64,000 nt of DNA from Neophaeotheca triangularis. Lineage: Eukaryota. Every line of letters begins with the position of its first letter. Position 1 is the first letter of the stretch. Shown in pieces: positions 5,467 through 50,491 of this stretch. The stretch covers positions 1-64,000 of the forward strand of contig BAAIJX010000044.1 of assembly GCA_054600435.1 (NCBI GenBank), read 5' to 3'. The notes beneath the pieces are model-generated. The model saw only the letters and a program-made list of their open reading frames with translations, was not told the DNA's origin and did no database searches. The position numbers were made by a program, and so were the translations under genes.

Positions 5467-5570
5467 GCCTTCGGGCATTTGGTCAATTTGAAACAATACA
5501 GAGAAGATTAGCATGGCCCCTGCACTAAGGATGACACATGCAAGTAAAGTGAGCTACCAAGCTTTTTTTT
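5467..5570 (+). ncRNA. U6: U6 spliceosomal snRNA, copy 1
   Basis: GCC-TTCG-GGC 5' stem, ACAGAGA box, AGC triad, ISL GGCCCCTGCACTAAGGATGAC, oligo-T terminator. Confidence 0.97.
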
Positions 5571-9434: not shown

Positions 9435-10417
9435 GAAGGTGAAAGGTAGCAGATGTTTGCAACCGCTCGTGGACGCGTTCACGGCGAAAGCCATAGGCTG
9501 GCTGCCTCATGTTTCAATATCACGAAGAGGGAAGGATGTATGTACTGCTATCGGGACTTTTCTCCTAGTAAGGTTTTTTCCAGCCCTCGGGCTCATGTCA
9601 ACGATTTTGTGGTAGGCGTGCTTTGATAGGGCCTTGTTCAACCAGAATCTTTCTTTGTCAAGTAGCTCGATTCCATTTTGCTGGTTTCAAAGATGACGTG
9701 AGGACAATCGCAAACAAAGCGTCATCGTAGGCTGCCGCTTGAAGGTAATTTGGCGGATGAGAACAGCAGCAAGCCTAGAGTAAGGATTATCTCACGATAT
9801 CAGCGCGGGCAGGATCTCGAATGGTTCACAGCAATGCCAGCGCTCAAAGGGTAAATAAGAGATTCTTGTAGTAAGTACAGGCAGACAGTGGCCAACAGGC
9901 TTGCTATTTGACGGACACGGGAAGGGTGGAAAGAGTATTTGGAGAACAGCGAGATCAAAAAGGCAAATTACCCTCTTCTCCAAGACCTTGCGAAGAGCAA
10001 GAGCGTGATGAAAAAGGAGTGGGTCGCGTCAGCTAGAAGTAGTGCGATACTAGCGACACAGTGACCCTAAGAATGTGCAAGCACAGAAACTTAGGATCTG
10101 GCGCCAAAAATAAGATTTATCTCAAGGAGGTCGATGACACTCCGTTTCAGAGATCAAACTGAAACTGAAGAAAGGTTAGCACGAGTCGTCGGTCAAGTGG
10201 GAGGAATGATACGAACAGAACAGATGCTACACCTGGAGGAGCCAAAAGGCTAAAGCAAAGTGGGTTAGTAGGGAATATCGAAGGTCTGATAATGTCGAAA
10301 CAGCGTACCAAAGTGTGCTGGGGAGAAGGGAAAGAGGAAGAGGAATCGAAAATGGAGGGAGGCTTGAGTTGTAGTCTCCCAGCCCCCTGCCAAGCGGACC
10401 GTGCCCTCGACAATCAC

Positions 10418-10591
10418 CACACAATCAATGCCCAGCTCTTCCTCGGGTTTCTATGCACGCCAAGGCACAGTTATCACTTGACCGATTGATACGCGTGGTC
10501 CTGTTGATTGTGAGGGGGGCACAGACCAAGTCGCAGGAACAAAACCAAGCTGCCCTCTCTCTCTCAACCTTCTTCCTTTCTTCTCTCTCCC
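10418..10591 (+). promoter_or_regulatory. U4 upstream promoter blocks shared with U1
   Basis: CACACAATCA, ACGCGTG, TGATTGTG, GACCAA, CGCAG, ACAAAACCAAGCTGCCCT, CAACCTT and a pyrimidine tract occur in the same order and similar spacing upstream of U1. Confidence 0.75.
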
Positions 10592-10720
10592 ATCCGAGTG
10601 CAAGGGCGTTATGATTACCTGTGAAGATTTGTCTGAGGTGTCATTATTGCTAGTTGAAAACTAGGTTTTTGACTGCTCCTGTTGGCCTTCGGGTCGGCAG
10701 GGAATTTTTGGCAAAACACT
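10592..10720 (+). ncRNA. U4: U4 spliceosomal snRNA
   Basis: 5' ATCCGAGTGCAAGGGC complements U6 GCCCCTGCACTAAGGAT (stem II). K-turn stem-loop CTGTGA-AGATTTGTCT-GAG. TTGCTAGTTGAAAACT (stem I). 3' UUCG hairpin. Sm site AATTTTTGG 10703-10711. 3' end approximate. Confidence 0.92.
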
Positions 10721-13152
10721 TCGAAGCTGTAGTGACAGCAATCTTTCTTTCATCATGATATCGGCTGGGCGCAGCTGGTATGTGAAGAAGGAGTCATTGG
10801 ATTAAGGCCTTGAGGTGGACTTTCTTTTGCATGCTGTGGATCCGCGTATCGCACTTTTGTATGTCGTCGTGGAAGCATAGCTACAGATTCACTTCACGTC
10901 TTGAGGTGTGTTAAGTTACAGTCCTAAGTGTGAGAAATCATCGCTGAATATGATCAAGTATCAAGGCCCGGTAGGAGGCCGGAGGCGGTCATGTCCACCT
11001 CTGCTCCCATTTCGCTCCTCTTTTGCCGTTGACCTGTTACGAGAGCACTTCATGCGATCTGCTTACGCGACTACGCTGGGCTGGCTTTTGAAGTGGAGTG
11101 GCATCCAATTAAAACTATCCGTCGGGGGAGTCTACTGCTATTCGACTATTCCACACGCCTTCGACTACGACGAGTACTATGCAGCCGCTTCAGAAAGCTT
11201 CGCCGAAGGTGAGCACACATGGGAGCCTGGTTGTCTCGGGGATGATGATGTTCACTCTACCTCACCTCAGCCGTCTCCGCCCTTCGGCACCCTACAGAGA
11301 TTCAGAGTGCATTTTGCATTCGTGGCCACGCTGCGCTTTCTGATGGGGAAGACAGTCTTTGCGGCGAGAGGTCTTCGTCGAAGGGGTGGATTGCTATTCG
11401 ATCTTCTCATGCGCCCTCGAACCTCCACTAGCATTGAGCTGCCATAGCATGTCCGTCGTCTTGGATGCTCTTTTCATGCAAGGAGCGTATGCTGACCGCA
11501 GTACATAACTGCAAAGCGTAGATAATCTCACGCGCGAGCTTGAAGGACATTATATGCGCAATTATCGACACCCACAAAGACACCTTCTCTCTCCTCGTCC
11601 CTGTCGTATAGCCCTTTCGCCACTGCCTCCACGCCAACACCACTGCCATTACATCTTCCCATAAGCAGTTCCTTGGCCAGCAAGAAAAAAGAAGAAAAAA
11701 AGACTCGAATAAAGAAAGCCAGTGCTGGAACTTCGAGGCTGACTTTTTTTGTCGGTGCAATTGCCTGGAAACACAGCAAGAAGACACGATCCACATACCC
11801 TCCAAGGCCATACCAGGGATCCGGGCGAGCTGTTTTAATCGTCCAAGTTCCCGGAAGTCATTCCAACGATGGCCTTCCAAAGCGTTTGGCCAGAGAATTC
11901 AGCGGGAGTACGAAGCGGATCACTCGCGGGGTCACATACTCTTATTCCTCGAGCTTCACCGCCGCAAACTGCAAAGCGGCCAGCCTGTAGCAAAGAAGGG
12001 CGCAGGCGGTAGGTACGCCGTGTTTGGAGAAGGAGGGTCGCTAATGGCAAAACAGGAGATAGGCAAGCGTGGTATGAACAGGGCATAGACAACAGAAGTC
12101 GCGTGCAGGAAGAGAGTAGAAGAGGAAGAGTTGGACAAAAGAAAGATGCAGTCAAAAGCAGAAAGGTATATTTCGATAGTAAGGCAAACACTTTCCCGGC
12201 CGATTTAACGGTCACGCGAGCTGTTGCTGTTAGAACCCCTGTTGTTTCCCTTGTTCCTCTAGTAGCGGTTCTCGTTGCGAAGATGACAGTAAGTCTCTCT
12301 TGCAATCGCCTTTCCGGCCTGCTGCGACCAGCGCACTCCGTATCACTAGCAGCCCGATGACTGGAGGAGCAGTTTGCTTTACCGTTATGAGCACCCCGAA
12401 CTTGAGGAGCAGCTATGTTTTCCCTGGCTCGCAGCTTTCAAGTCTCGCTGGTTCGGGTTAGTTTCTTCTAGAGGCAGGCAAGTGAATTGAACCTTAGGCT
12501 GTTGCGGACCTTTTCCGATGGCTAGGATCTTTTTCTCTAGTCTGAGCTTATCTTGTATAGGTCACCACGCTACAAAGGGGAAGTCGATGAGGAAGAAAAT
12601 GTCCCTCATCGGCTCTAGCGGGCGCTCTCGCTACAGTCTCCTCGAAAGAACTGAAAGAAGCACATGACAGGGGGCGGTAGCAAAACCCCCCGCCCAGGAT
12701 GGTGACGGAAGTCAGGCTAAGAATACAACCACAAATGTATGAGCTTCAGTAGCACTAGTACTGGTTGAGCTCGCGATCAGCTCAGCGGCCTGCTTTAGAG
12801 GCACCGTGCCAATGGCCAGGGTAACTGCTCAAGATCGCAACATGTCAGGCGCCCGCAGAACCGCGATTGACGGCGGAGTAGCGAAGGCTGGTTTGATAAA
12901 GACGGTAGCGCAATGAAAGGTGGGCTGTAAGCAGGGAACACATGCCCGGTGATTACTGTATCTATCTTCTCGGACTTAGGTATGAATGCTTTCATTATCG
13001 TTCACACCGGGCGTCAGAGCGTGGAATAGCAAGCTCGTGTCACCCACACTTGGATGATCCAAACCGCCGGAGTCTGACGAAGGCAATGTCCGCAAGCCTT
13101 GCCCATTGTATCATAACCAGCCAGATCAAGCCGATCAGCGTGCTACATCCGT

Positions 13153-26324: not shown

Positions 26325-27554
26325 GCGCTGGCCATCTTGTAGTCTCTTCTTTCCATTCTTTCCAAGCAATGCTATCGATGCGAGGGTATGTTGTCCGTTT
26401 TGCCAATTCCAATATGTCCAAGCTCTTTTCTGTGGTATTTTCCGCCTCTTTCTCGATTTTTATGAACTGTTCACATGCTATTTCGTACCCAGTCATCCGT
26501 TTCAGCTCCATTCGGCCACCTTTGTTGGGGTAGTATTTTTTCTTTGTTTTCCAGCTCTTTTCATTGATACCTTGTGTTGTTGGATTAGCTAGAACTTTGT
26601 TGAATGCAGATGGGTTGAGCTTGCGTTAACGCCGGATTCTTGAGCATGACTGGAAATGGGAAGCAGAGACTCGAACAAGACAGACAGTGGCACTTTGCCT
26701 TGCCGTTGCTTGCTTTTCTTCCGCTGGAAGTCAGCTACAACAAATTTTGGACGTCTCGAGATACAGCTTTGTGGACACAATGTCGAAACTCACACTGCTT
26801 TCTGCTCACAAGGGATGCCTTCTATATCGTAGTTCCTGTACGACAGTTCAGAATGGGGCTCTTTCCATCTATTTGCTCCTTGGACCAAAGACTCTTCAAG
26901 AAAAAGCCAACGTCGCTGGTTGAAGTCGTACGGGAAGGAAGAGTAATCTGCGGTCCCAGGCTCAGACAAGAGAGGTCTAGACACGAAGGAGTCCCATCAC
27001 GCGGAAGGGTCCACGATTCGTGAGCGCCGTCAAGTTTACGCTTTAAGAGCTTCAGGAACGTATTGTTCGAGTACGCTGCTGCCTTGAGGATATTTCCTCA
27101 CTCGTTAGGTGGAAACGACTCAACTTACGCTGTTGGGTCTTCTTCCATTGAATGCAGAGCAAGACCGCCGTGAGTTGTATAGCTATATAACAAGTAAAAG
27201 AATGGTTGCGCTTTAGCGACAGGCAGTTCCACGTTTGACAATTGAAGCCACGGTATAGTCGCATGTCTTCGACACAGAGAGTGCGCTCAACGCAACAAAC
27301 TGGCGGGAGCATGTCTATTCGTGGTGAGTAGAATGAACATGTGAGAGATTTCTGTCTTGAGTTTAATGCGGCGGCAACAGCAGCAATAGCAGCACGAAGT
27401 ACATCCGTAGCAGAAGGGGAAAGACTAGAATATGCTGAGACGCGAAAAGACATATGCAGCAAAAATGTATCAGAGAAAGAGAGCTGCAACCCTACCTCAA
27501 TTCTTCTCAAGTCTCCCGCAATGAAGCGAAAGAAGCTCATGAAAAAGCAATAGT

Positions 27555-27690
27555 AATTTGTCCATCAAAAATTGTGCCAGCCCCCGTGCCGAAGCTCGAG
27601 GAGTACGAACCTCCCACCACGATGTGCAATGCAGAGGAGGTCGTAGGATCAAAGCACGCGTGAGCGCCCGATCCCCGACAAGGTAAGTAT
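27555..27690 (-). ncRNA. U1: U1 spliceosomal snRNA
   Basis: 5' ATACTTACCT, helix H TGTCGG/CTGGCA, stem-loop II with ATTGCAC (U1A site), UUCG stem-loop III, Sm site AATTTTTGA 27573-27565. 3' end approximate. Confidence 0.93.
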
Positions 27691-27859
27691 GGAGAGAAGA
27701 AGAAGAAAGGTTGTGGAAATTTGCAGAAGGGGAGCTCGGTTTTGTGTCTGCGCTCGTTGGTCCGAGCTCGCCACAATCACTCGCTAATCACACGCGTGGA
27801 ATCTTCTGGACAGAGGGACTCGACCAATGAGAGGGCGACGGTGAGGGTGTGATTGTGTG
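27691..27859 (-). promoter_or_regulatory. U1 upstream promoter blocks shared with U4
   Basis: Same ordered motifs as upstream of U4, including ACAAAACCGAGCTCCCCT (16/18 identical). Confidence 0.75.
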
Positions 27860-34685: not shown

Positions 34686-34788
34686 AAAAAAAGTTTGGTA
34701 GCTCACTTTACTTGCATGTGTCATCCTTAGTGCAGGGGCCATGCTAATCTTCTCTGTATTGTTTCAAATTGACCAAATGCCCGAAGGC
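34686..34788 (-). ncRNA. U6: U6 spliceosomal snRNA, copy 2
   Basis: Near-identical to copy 1; B box GTTCGAGTC at 34649-34641; GTATAT about 30 nt upstream. Confidence 0.96.
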
Positions 34789-36738
34789 AAGGAGCTTCGC
34801 CGCGTATCGAACATATACACTAAATTTAGGTAACACATGTCTTGGGCAAGACCCTTAGCCTTATCGCCGACACGAAGTTTTCGAGCCCATTAACGGGCAG
34901 ACAGAAAGCTGAGCGCTGATACGTTGAGTAAAGCCCTAGGCTACAGGAACTACTTGAAAGACTGCCTAGAGATCACAGCCCGTTCACCAATCCTGAATAA
35001 AGCGCGCCTCTTCCTTACCCTCAAGCCGACCACGAAATCGCACAAAGCACCTATGTCGAAACCAGCTCATGTGAATGCTTGGGCAAAAGACCTGGCCGCA
35101 CACGTCAGCAGCACAATCTCGACTGCGGCGAGAGACACAAGAGGAGGGGCTGTAACATCGCGCCGTTACAAGAAGAGGCGGAAACCGCAACGAAGCTAGC
35201 AGTGGCAGCGTGCAGGATTGAAAGAGAACGGTAACCAAGAATACTCGGCTTAGGCAAACTATAGCAGGGAGATGGACATCAAAACGATCATGCCGATGCT
35301 TGGGTATCTGGTGAGAGACACCGAGTTAGAGACGACGCCAGCTGTTGGAAGATGGGCATCGATTCTGAAACAATCTGCTAGTGTTCCTTGGATGGCTTGC
35401 CGCGGGCTTTTGGGGTCTCGTAGAGGATACGCATAGAAGCAGCCTCTTTCCTTTGAACCAACCAGCTGCTTGAGGAACCTTGTTCGGCCCGAGGCTAGCA
35501 ACAGCCGTCGCGTGCATTTTTGACCGCAGAGACCATGGCAAACGAGCGACGACAGGACTCCTAGAGGCCCCGATTGGAATTGTTTTATGAGGCTGAGACG
35601 AGATTGTGGGAGCGAGAGCGTTCCCCTCAGTAAAAGACTGTTCGATGAGACGGCAAGCCAAGTAAGAATCCACCACAGCACGCAAATTGCGTTTCAGAGT
35701 GCTCGAGTTATTCTCAAGACGCAACGCCGATCATTCCCGTCTCTGGGCGACTTTACTAGGCTCCTTCGCGCAGATCGCCTAGAATTGTCGTCTACGGGGC
35801 TCGCAAGCCATGCTCTAGAAGGACGATTTAGCTGACCCGAAGACGAAGCGTCCAAGCCTTAAACTGCGGAGGCGTGTTGGGCCTCGACGAAACAGTAATC
35901 GCTAGCTGCATCTATCGATGTTCTCGGTGACGTCTAGGCGCAGCCTCGTTACTTACCCTGGGACAGCTAAGTAGCACGAATCGAGGAACAACACTTAGGT
36001 GGTAAGTGACTACCGCAAGTGGTTGAGCACGGGAGGGTTGGGCTGCCGGATAATGCAGCGATACTAGGAGTAATAAAAGCTTGGGAATAAGACGAGTGAC
36101 AAGCCCGACAGACAGAGTCGGGAACAATCTACGGTTGCTTAGGACTACGGAGTTTTTTGGGACAATTGGGAGAACATCGGCTGCTCGAGGCTTGAGCGAG
36201 CAGGGCAAGATTTCGGTGTCGAGCCCTGGAGACCAAACTGGGCATTGGCTTTTTCTAGGTTTCCATGCAATGTCACCGGGCTTAGAAAGAGGCAATGCAC
36301 CGTGGCCAGCATCAGGTTTTGCTAGAGTTTCGTTTGGATCAGAGCTTAGCCCAAGTGCATCGTCGCCCTATTGCTTGGTTGGAGCAAGCAGTTTTCCTCA
36401 ATATTATAAAACTCAATCATTTGCGATGGTTGCAATTCAAACCTAGAGCAGGTAAACATCTCAGCTTACCGCACTCGACACGATGAGGTGAAGTTCAAGT
36501 AAGCTCAACGGCTCCAGATCCGTTCTCGACCCTGATCTTCTCCCCCGCTCGATACCCTGCAGTAGCGCGAATGACGTTCTCATGACAGCCCCCAATGCGT
36601 CTTCCCCCAGCTCCCTCGTCCATCACGTTCACAGGTTCAACTTCGATTTTCTTCCTCCCGTCTTTCCCAATCAAATTCCACACATTTACCAATCTCACCA
36701 ATCGAACATTCCACCACCACCCTGGTCGTCACCACAAC

Positions 36739-36768
36739 CACCACCACCACCACCACCACCACCACCAC
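36739..36768 (+). repeat. (CAC)n microsatellite in the SDR 5' region
   Basis: About 10 tandem CCA/CAC units. Confidence 0.85.
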
Positions 36769-36816
36769 TACCAACGAACCCGCCTTTCCGCCCAATCTCC
36801 ACCAGTCACACCAACC

Positions 36817-37749
36817 ATGCCTCTCGAACGCAAACAGAAAAACATACTCCTAACCGGCGGAGCCCAAGGCATCGGCCGCGCAACCGCCCGACACCTCCTC
36901 TCGCTCCCGGCCAACCACAACCTCTACATCCTCGACATCGGGGCGGACGAGCTCGCCTACTGCGGCAAAACCTACCTCTCGGCCTACGCACCCCGGGTCG
37001 GCTGGAGCGTCGCCAACCTCCGAGAACCGTCCGAGATCCGCTCCGCCGTGAAGAAAGCCGCCGACTTCTTGGACGGGAGGATTGACGTTTTGATTTGCAA
37101 TGCCGGTATCGCGCGGCCGCATTTTACCGCCGGCGATGGGACGATGGAAGATCAGGCGACTGCGGAAGAGTGGCAAGCGTACGTCGAGACGAATTTGAGC
37201 GCGCCGTTCTTGGTTAGCCAGGCGGTGATTCCTTTTATGAAAGCGCAGGCGAGTTCGCAGCCGGGGCAATCGGGTGACGCGAGGCATGGGGAGGATAGGT
37301 TGGAGGAGGGCGGGTGTATTGTGCATGTCAGCAGCTTTAGGGCTCATATGAGTGATGCCAATTGTGAAGGTTATGGGGCTACGAAGATGGGGTTGGGAGG
37401 GTTGACGCAGGCGATGGCGGTTAGCGGGCAGCAGTGGGGGATTAGGTGTAATATGGTTAGTCCGGGCACGGTGAAGGTTGGGCAGGAGTGTAGGGAGGGG
37501 GATGAAAGGGCGAAGGAGTTGGCCGGTGGGGAGATCGGGGGGTTGCCGCATGAGGGGGAATGGGAGAAGTGGAGGACGGCGGTCTGGGATGAGACGAGGG
37601 GGGAGGCTTATGATGAGGCACACCCGACTGGGAGGGTTGGCAGGGGTGAGGATATTGCTGAGGCGATTGAATTTGTCATGGGTGCTGGGTTTGTGAGTGG
37701 GCAGGAGATCGTCGTTGATGGGGGGAAGAGTAAGAAGAAGACGGGCTGA
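36817..37749 (+). CDS. Short-chain dehydrogenase/reductase
   Basis: TGGAQGIG Rossmann motif, CNAG, SS, YGATK (YxxxK), SPG, VDGG. Confidence 0.95.
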   Translation: MPLERKQKNILLTGGAQGIGRATARHLLSLPANHNLYILDIGADELAYCGKTYLSAYAPRVGWSVANLREPSEIRSAVKKAADFLDGRIDVLICNAGIARPHFTAGDGTMEDQATAEEWQAYVETNLSAPFLVSQAVIPFMKAQASSQPGQSGDARHGEDRLEEGGCIVHVSSFRAHMSDANCEGYGATKMGLGGLTQAMAVSGQQWGIRCNMVSPGTVKVGQECREGDERAKELAGGEIGGLPHEGEWEKWRTAVWDETRGEAYDEAHPTGRVGRGEDIAEAIEFVMGAGFVSGQEIVVDGGKSKKKTG

Positions 37750-41298: not shown

Positions 41299-41402
41299 GC
41301 CCTGGGGGCATCTGGTCAATTTGAAACAATACAGAGAAGATTAGCATGGTCCCTGCACTAAGGATGACACATGTAAGCTAAAGTGAGCTAAAAACTTTTT
41401 TT
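41299..41402 (+). ncRNA. U6: U6 snRNA variant, copy 3 (may start at ~41242)
   Basis: ACAGAGA, AGC and ISL intact apart from one C>T; altered 5' stem and 3' tail; B box GTTCGAGCC 41420-41428. Confidence 0.9.
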
Positions 41403-50387: not shown

Positions 50388-50491
50388 AAAAAAAAGTTTG
50401 GTAGCTCACTTTACTTGCATGTGTCATCCTTAGTGCAGGGGCCATGCTAATCTTCTCTGTATTGTTTCAAATTGACCAAATGCCCGAAGGC
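50388..50491 (-). ncRNA. U6: U6 spliceosomal snRNA, copy 4
   Basis: Near-identical to copies 1 and 2; TATATATTTA upstream; B box GGTTCGAGAC at 50349-50340. Confidence 0.97.

Follow-up and report, generated by a model that had tools for sequence, protein, structure and literature searches.

Why do the genes for U4 and U1 snRNA, two unrelated RNAs, carry the same series of short sequence blocks upstream of their 5′ ends in Neophaeotheca triangularis? The question is raised by a stretch of 64,000 nucleotides (the window; assembly GCA_054600435.1, contig BAAIJX010000044.1, positions 1 to 64,000), which holds U1, U2 and U4 genes and four U6 genes, together with an SLX9 protein whose nearest named homologs come from Polychaeton, Recurvomyces, Neohortaea and Hortaea (∼40% identity), a result that puts the fungus within or close to Capnodiales/Mycosphaerellales. 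An initial annotation proposed that the blocks form a colinear, dedicated Pol II snRNA promoter in which the block at about −55 sits where the metazoan PSE does. The targeting of Pol II to snRNA genes in filamentous fungi and mushrooms is barely described in the accessible portions of the literature searched. In this study, the blocks were compared with chance expectation, with the other snRNA genes of the genome and with the U2 promoters of other fungi. The features of the window are collected in Table 1.

Table 1. Promoter, RNA and 3′ features at the U2/U4 and U1 loci (window coordinates).
Feature	Position	Strand	Remarks
Variant U2 3′ hairpin, TTTTCATCA...GGAGAAG	9975..10014	-	Putative RNase III-type end signal
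Variant U2 snRNA, head-to-head with U4	10018..10319	-	Rfam RF00004, 84.5 bits
Variant U2 likely TATA position, TACAACTC	10366..10373	-	Placed by eye, 1 base off the flank-based placement
Variant U2 upstream element, GCACGGTCC	10396..10404	-	31 bp to TATA position, about one turn above usual
TGATTG doublet oriented to variant U2	10411..10427	-	Plus strand is the CACACAATCA block of the initial annotation
ACGCGT palindrome	10491..10496	no strand	Present in 4/28 promoters, three separate regions
TGATTGTG site oriented to U4	10505..10512	+	
U4 upstream element GCACRGRCC	10519..10527	+	The GACCAA block of the initial annotation; candidate USE/PSE-like element
U4 CGCAG, 5′ flank of TATA position	10532..10536	+	
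U4 TATA position, AACAAAAC	10538..10545	+	
U4 TATA-position 3′ flank YRAGCTSCYCT	10546..10556	+	Conserved (column counts, 17 promoters)
U4 CT-rich tract ending CC/A	10557..10591	+	Includes CAACCTT; ordinary filamentous-fungal core promoter feature
U4 snRNA, divergent paralog	10592..10731	+	Rfam RF00015, 93 bits; top identity to other U4 copies 0.71
U4 3′ hairpin	10748..10790	+	
U1 3′ hairpin	27503..27545	-	
U1 snRNA, divergent paralog	27541..27690	-	Rfam 44.6 bits, E 5.7e-8, under gathering score
U1 CT-rich tract	27691..27727	-	
U1 CGCAG, TATA position CACAAAAC and 3′ flank	27728..27752	-	TATA position at 27739-27746
U1 upstream element, GCTCGGACC	27759..27767	-	One mismatch
TGATTR doublet oriented to U1	27774..27790	-	
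Lone TGATTGTG site, reverse orientation	27850..27859	+	U1 −169 block

The 5′ ends used here were derived from Rfam matches and from the common junction between pyrimidine tract and A, the A after the tract being taken as the start. On this basis all of the blocks lie at the U4/U1 offsets originally given, namely CACACAATCA at −174/−169, ACGCGT at −101/−107, TGATTGTG at −87/−89, GACCA at −68/−72, CGCAG at −60/−62, ACAAAAC at −53/−55 and CAACCTT at −27/−23, and the 18-mer at −53/−55 is identical at 16 of its 18 positions, as had been claimed. When the 180 bp regions upstream of U4 and U1 were aligned globally, none of 1000 dinucleotide shuffles reached the score, and the pair ranked third among 245 cross-family promoter pairs. 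The core (−80 to −36) was likewise matched by 0/1000 shuffles; the distal part (−180 to −66) was marginal, 10/1000 shuffles reaching its score (rank 10/245). Genome-wide, the 18-mer with at most two mismatches occurs at 26 sites, compared with five for the reversed control, and 11 of the 26 lie before U1, U2 or U4 (outside the window, Rfam covered 20 of 24 sites).

The genome contains, as lower bounds, ten U2 genes (one a 5′ fragment), five U4, one U5, ten U6, two U3 and 13 U1 genes, 12 of the last being found by search and one via its 3′ hairpin. The 28 U1, U2 and U4 genes formed the promoter set, and as background we used 76 sites with a pyrimidine tract, not mapped promoters, drawn from 180 kb of this genome. 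ACAAAAC lies at −45 to −58 in 17/28 promoters (background 0/76), CGCAG stands just 5′ of the TATA-position block in 14/28 (2/76) and GCACRGRCC, with up to one mismatch, is found at −90 to −60 in 14/28 (1/76). All 28 genes have a tract with at least 17 of 18 pyrimidines before the putative start. The proposal of a dedicated, snRNA-enriched Pol II promoter is thus borne out and reaches U2, with ACAAAAC in 8/10 U2, 7/13 U1 and 2/5 U4 genes. The motifs also proved uncommon in random promoters, to judge from the background sites and from CGCAGnnACAAAAC, 14 of whose 16 genome sites are snRNA genes; on reading, the other two showed no recognisable RNA gene. The expectation that the motifs precede both U2 and U5 held for U2 but not for U5, of which genome searches yielded a single copy, with neither motif. 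Both motifs are also absent from all ten U6 genes, which have a TATA box near −29 in 7/10 and a downstream B-box match in 5/10.

Several observations on these other genes may be recorded. The U5 gene (L037, G000:C64:48703-48816, minus strand) has a U6-like layout, with TATATA at −30, a B-box-like GTTCGAG at +118 and a T run, and has neither a CT tract nor a 3′ hairpin; to judge from this layout, it suggests transcription of U5 by Pol III, unlike in S. pombe. The U6 genes of the window (5467-5566, 34689-34788, 41299-41400 and 50392-50491) have downstream B-box-like motifs, the one at 41299 being a variant that lacks a TATA box, and five more U6 genes are clustered on C19. One or two spliceosomal introns occur in 7/10 U2 and 3/5 U4 copies (L027-L036, L050-L054), both U3 genes have one intron and intron-containing U2 genes are also present in the metagenome set described below. 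The U2 5′ fragment (L036, G000:C35:3855-3995, minus strand) has a perfect promoter and is cut at the position of the second intron, after which the 5′ end of U2 is repeated in inverted orientation.

In genome-wide pattern searches, CGCAGnnnCAAAAC gave 37 sites compared with 20 in the control, snRNA genes making up 14 of the 16 that have A before CAAAAC, ACAAAAC plus a CT tract gave 41 compared with 25, and the upstream element, octamer and tract together gave ten compared with two. The excess of 16 in the second search corresponds to 14 snRNA genes, one unannotated RNA locus and an Argonaute gene, and the ten sites of the third to six snRNA genes, one U1-like relic, the Argonaute gene and two others; since the patterns were derived from the same genes, these counts demonstrate specificity, not sensitivity. 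The two-element promoter is therefore common to U1, U2, U4 and one U3 gene and rare elsewhere, with one protein-coding exception, and because of the Argonaute gene it is not strictly snRNA-only. A strong but generic fungal Pol II promoter, devoid of snRNA specificity, would account for the full layout at the Argonaute gene and for the CT tract, C/A start, CCTNAGG and CACGTG, which are general in A. nidulans according to the accessible part of the source (PMC4046813); however, the excess over the controls falls mostly on snRNA genes, and we give this explanation almost no credence.

The −55 block is probably best read, from its sequence and position, as the TATA position and not as a PSE. The upstream element stands 18–21 bp from the octamer, whether nACAAAAC or TATA-like, in 12/13 genes of this genome. 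The 17 nACAAAAC octamers comprise CACAAAAC (nine), AACAAAAC (six), GACAAAAC (one) and TACAAAAC (one). None of them has the TATAWAWR consensus; all 17 fit, in sequence, the crystal-derived TBP rule N[AT][ATC][AT][AT]NNN, which allows C at positions 1 and 3 and calls for A or T at positions 2, 4 and 5 (PMC13566119, accessible part). TATA-like octamers interchange with nACAAAAC in the genome: the TATA position reads TATAATTT in one U2 gene (L031) and TATATCAA in both U3 genes, one of which carries the upstream element ∼22 bp upstream. In one U4 gene (L050) it reads TATAACAT, followed by the TGAGCTGC flank that U2 genes have after CACAAAAC. A metagenome locus (L189) that matches the U2 promoters of this genome block for block carries the element, the GCGCAG flank and then TATATA. 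The genome has one TBP gene, whose product is almost identical to the fungal TBPs with PDB entries; since this single gene is ordinary, a modified or additional TBP was rejected as the cause of the TATA shift.

Three observations count against the TATA reading or loosen it. When the octamer was placed from its flanks only, it was TBP-compatible in 5/15 non-circular cases (chance 13.7% per position, p ∼0.04). The combination of a canonical TATA with a CT tract shows weak genome-wide enrichment (58 rows compared with 43 in the control, overlaps included), so that the distance from TATA to start in this organism is not independently fixed. Furthermore, a G two bases upstream of nACAAAAC is invariant in 17 promoters from three gene families, and such convergence exceeds what TBP alone would demand; so uniform a word may point, by analogy with Drosophila PSEB, to a dedicated reader. 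It is conceivable, though we rate it well behind TBP, that CGCAG-nn-ACAAAAC-YRAGCT is read by a dedicated protein that took over the TATA position as in insects. The sites of the Ndt80 family have the form CRCAAAW, and a factor of this family is one candidate because CACAAAA matches that form; however, the first C is present in 9/17 octamers and missing in 8/17. A dedicated protein would fit the fact that U1, U2, U4 and other RNA genes shifted in concert, the near confinement of CGCAGnnACAAAAC to snRNA genes, the conserved flanks and the insect precedent, as given in the available sections of PMC1761439. Against it stand the TATA-like octamers within the same flanks in sister copies, the fit of every octamer to the TBP rule and the unchanged TBP.

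The conserved PSE/USE-like part of the promoter is, as far as sequence comparison goes, the block first listed as GACCAA, that is GCACRGRCC, ∼20 bp further upstream. The initial annotation had the right place but gave the PSE label to the wrong block; what is conserved lies at about −73. For comparison, an exact 34-base U2 pattern was searched in metagenomes and gave at least 119 loci, or 118 matches after de-duplication; 14 of the 118 matches listed were given no start. Requiring 100 bp upstream and collapsing promoters more than 75% alike left, among the matches listed, 46 ascomycete-type, 34 Coprinopsis-type and four other promoters, and the ascomycete-type set fell to 45 on removal of one row whose start had been mis-called. 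The types were assigned by reference to the 5′ ends of U2 from Aspergillus nidulans and Coprinus cinereus as given in the part of the source available (PMC2396436, supplement 1), not by contig taxonomy. The U2 pattern had no match in prokaryote genomes.

Among the matches listed, 35/45 ascomycete-type (Pezizomycotina-type) U2 promoters have a TATA-like box at −30 to −62 and 3/45 have [AT]CAAAA, and GCACRGRCC occurs in 10/45 (control window 1/39), in all ten cases 20–23 bp from TATA. Its reverse complement, TGGYCYGTGCGC, is present in 31/34 Coprinopsis-type promoters among the matches listed, mostly at −55 to −59 (control window 0/32), followed after 21–25 bp by a TATA at −33 to −35 in 29 of the 31; a match in the ascomycete orientation was found in 3/34. 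The element is not obligatory, because half of the genes here and, among the matches listed, 35/45 ascomycete-type U2 promoters have none. A second motif, YTAGCG, often with GCCAAG, was observed in 26/45 ascomycete-type U2 promoters among the matches listed (control 2/31), and, likewise among the metagenome U2 loci (L092-L210), a non-fungal-looking group has CCCATAAT near −64 plus TATTTAAA.

The originally proposed reading, in which SNAPc would bind a metazoan-type PSE at −55 and a DSE would lie farther upstream, draws on the position near −55, the TATA-less look of 17/28 genes and the snRNA specificity. However, the block occupies the TATA position, U5 and all ten U6 genes lack it, and the 18-mer is absent, even with four mismatches, from the 45 and 34 other fungal U2 promoters among the matches listed. 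An exon-wise genome search, run with no positive control, gave no match to the SNAPc subunit families PF12251 (SNAPC3) and PF09808 (SNAPC1). No common distal enhancer (DSE) is seen either, as the distal motifs at −200 to −60 vary among the 28 promoters (TGATTGTG in five, TGASTCA-like in 14, CCTGAGGC in seven and CACGTG in four). We regard a SNAPc-bound PSE as very improbable. The seven-block colinear layout does not generalize: the distal blocks occur in few genes, and CAACCTT is part of the CT tract (4/27 genes).

The likeness continues on the 3′ side. A 3′ hairpin with the conserved base TTTTCATCA...GGAGAAG follows 27/28 U1, U2 and U4 genes, and its pattern occurs genome-wide at 31 sites compared with two in the control; in a relaxed form, the hairpin-base sequence is found at 32/39 ascomycete-type and 0/21 Coprinopsis-type U2 loci among the matches listed. 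Such a pairing of 5′ and 3′ flanks, the many copies (13 U1, ten U2, five U4) and the long promoter stretches shared by U2 copies might be explained by descent, one promoter–terminator cassette having been duplicated or converted with its RNA bodies swapped, so that the blocks beyond TATA and CT tract would be unselected. We think this unlikely, since blocks and spacing are kept where the spacers between them vary, distant fungi have the upstream element at the same two-turn distance and the distal similarity of U1 and U4 is weak.

Unannotated loci that carry both promoter and hairpin were found on C20, C26 and C89; a U1-like relic on C70 and the Argonaute gene on C13 are marked by the promoter only. 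The locus on C26 (L009/L080, G000:C26:305697-307011, plus strand) is a ∼1.2 kb transcript under the snRNA promoter, with one intron and about seven repeated hairpin units ending in ACA-like boxes, an H/ACA-like array with no Rfam match. On C89 (L263, G000:C89:∼36300-37428, plus strand) lies a ∼1.05 kb RNA with the promoter, a Sm-site-like motif and a U4-like 3′ end preceding the 3′ hairpin, also with no Rfam match. The locus on C20 (L002, G000:C20:190401 downward, minus strand) is a ∼0.95 kb intron-containing RNA with promoter, 3′ hairpin, repeated hairpins and an H/ACA-like end; its identification as U3 was rejected, the Rfam match being weak (25.8 bits) and the real U3 genes lying elsewhere. 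Telomerase RNA gave no Rfam match among the unannotated loci under a stricter filter that had no control match. The relic (L262, G000:C70:35080, plus strand) has a full promoter with TACATAAG at the TATA position, a degenerate U1-like sequence and no 3′ hairpin. The Argonaute gene (L305, G000:C13:178612-178685, minus strand; ArgoN domain) has the full element, ACAAAAC and CT tract, and a long 5′ leader with two introns.

The distal blocks call for a separate account. CACAATCA is the reverse complement of TGATTGTG, so that two of the original blocks are one motif. A minus-strand variant U2, missed by the initial annotation, has its putative start at 10319, 272 bp from U4; the U4 upstream region (10320-10591) is therefore a bidirectional promoter common to both genes, and the U4 block at −174 is a doublet facing the variant U2. 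No gene was found on the side that the U1 −169 block faces. TGATTGTG occurs in 5/28 promoters (1.1% of background windows) and is absent from the 45 and 34 other fungal U2 promoters among the matches listed, all with canonical U2 core. Four of the five belong to the most divergent full-length paralogs, with best identities of 0.64 (window U1), 0.78 (U2), 0.71 (U4) and 0.56 (a U1-like RNA on C50); with the shared U2/U4 region counted once, the association is 3/3 compared with 1/24 (p 0.0014, post hoc). All four divergent-paralog regions carry a TGATTG doublet, one turn apart, 101–109 bp before the end of the CT tract. A homeodomain or HMG factor might bind TGATTG, a guess based on the core sequences of such factors. 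The doublet occurs at 16 sites genome-wide compared with six in the control; a genome-wide regulon was rejected, 12 sites outside snRNA promoters having no CT tract within 300 bp, so that no target genes could be named.

The divergent U1, U2 and U4 paralogs retain their folds. In the window U1, the 5′ end, loops and Sm site are also intact, and the window U4 retains its pairing with U6. The variant U2 has two spliceosomal-type introns (10250-10308 and 10165-10216) whose positions agree with those in other U2 copies, and its 3′ stems are intact through compensating changes. Helices II and Ib with U6 are kept, helix Ia is changed and weakened (−3.9 compared with −5.3 kcal/mol) and the branch-point recognition sequence is altered to GUAGCA. 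None of the ten U6 genes (76–81 bit scores; the four window copies in full, six others by score) restores helix Ia, and the variant-U2 pattern had no match in viral contigs. The U1-like RNA (L049, G000:C50:136156-136289, plus strand) folds fully like U1 and has an Sm site, a 3′ hairpin and a TATA-like box, but pairing of its 5′ end with 5′ splice sites is impossible; its bidirectional promoter also serves an unannotated, intron-containing, C/D-box-like transcript. A speculative synthesis, which we hold to be improbable as a whole, would be that GCACRGRCC/TGGYCYGTGC is an ancient Dikarya-wide snRNA element with a non-SNAPc reader and an orientation that is reversed between ascomycetes and Agaricomycete-type basidiomycetes, that its TATA partner was recoded to a snRNA-specific word in the Capnodiales lineage, and that the TGATTG doublet is a separate switch co-expressing intact divergent U1, U2 and U4 paralogs (U2 with a GUAGCA reader, U1 without a 5′-splice-site reader) as a condition-specific variant set of spliceosomal RNAs.

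Building on the observed sequences, positions, spacing and specificity and on the cross-fungal conservation of the upstream element, the reading that we consider fairly probable is a bipartite Pol II promoter of the USE+TATA type, in which an upstream factor loads ordinary TBP on a drifted nACAAAAC octamer. GCACRGRCC, lying some two helical turns 5′ of the TATA position, would be bound by a putative sequence-specific factor that would assist the loading of TBP on the octamer. In this lineage most octamers would have moved away from TATAWAWR to nACAAAAC, a weak TBP-compatible sequence, between conserved CGCAG and YRAGCT flanks. Pol II would start at the A after the CT tract, ∼53–58 bp downstream, and the transcript would end at an RNase III-type hairpin, presumably cleaved by RNase III. 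Further upstream would act a gene-specific mix of activator sites (TGASTCA-like, CCTNAGG, CACGTG), the window U1, U4 and variant U2 sharing the candidate activator site TGATTG, usually as a doublet one turn apart. If the TBP reading is true, changing nACAAAAC to TATAAAAG would not lose transcription.

The promoter is real and snRNA-specific, though not snRNA-only. The element, 9–12 bp at a fixed spacing, offers a bait for its factor, so that replacement of SNAPc becomes testable; promoter plus 3′ hairpin is a tag for unannotated RNAs, with four loci already pointed to; and the change from TATA to ACAAAAC cleanly illustrates how the promoters of unrelated genes evolve in concert. Variant snRNA sets are known from animal development, and similar ones may exist in fungi, provided that the divergent paralogs are co-regulated. 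Literature searches, which included literal motif forms and covered text outside subscription papers and figures, turned up neither an account of this element nor one of variant snRNA sets in fungi, and the accessible parts of PMC2780460, PMC5824354, PMC2518118, PMC2396422 and PMC3547838 hold nothing on this element.

Among known systems, as described in the available portions of the sources, the human PSE is a conserved sequence ∼50–55 bp upstream of Pol II snRNA genes (PMC5855946); it is SNAPc-dependent and shared with U6, with an Oct-1/Staf DSE near −250, and none of these traits was seen here. The present layout falls outside the SNAPc/PSE family in that U6 and U5 do not share it. Drosophila snRNA promoters, which change fast between species and in concert within one, have a snRNA-specific 8 bp PSEB at the TATA position of Pol II snRNA genes (PMC1761439, accessible text), like the block described here; however, their PSEA is ∼21 bp long, bound by SNAPc and shared with U6, whereas the element here is 9–12 bp, no SNAPc subunit was found and U6 has a TATA box and a downstream B box. 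Plant snRNA promoters are closer, with a USE upstream of TATA at fixed spacing shared by U1, U2 and U4 genes, as here (PMC545797, PMC9841428, in the parts available). The plant USE, printed there as RTCCACATCG, is unrelated in sequence to GCACRGRCC and is also shared by U5 and U6, unlike here, where, moreover, the element is present in half of the genes, the TATA position is mostly non-consensus and ∼55 bp lie before the start. The A. nidulans core promoter has a CT tract from −50, a C/A start, CCTNAGG and CACGTG upstream and a TATA distance of 30–45 bp; the available part of that study (PMC4046813) does not report GCACRGRCC or ACAAAAC or treat snRNA promoters. S. pombe Pac1, an RNase III, ends snRNAs at hairpins directly after U1, U2 and U4 (PMC8421224, accessible part), the position seen here, where the base sequence is conserved and U5 has no hairpin. 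The layout would belong to the USE+TATA type, having a conserved element at a fixed distance from TATA, with both elements predicted to be necessary. Zhou and Lobo-Ruppert reportedly described in 2001 a bipartite fungal promoter of this kind, the S. pombe U2 promoter, with a spUSE near −55 and a TATA near −26. The geometry of the Coprinopsis-type promoters, with the element at −55 to −59 and TATA at −33 to −35, is similar (a comparison of positions, not of sequences), and GCACRGRCC may be a homolog of the S. pombe spUSE.
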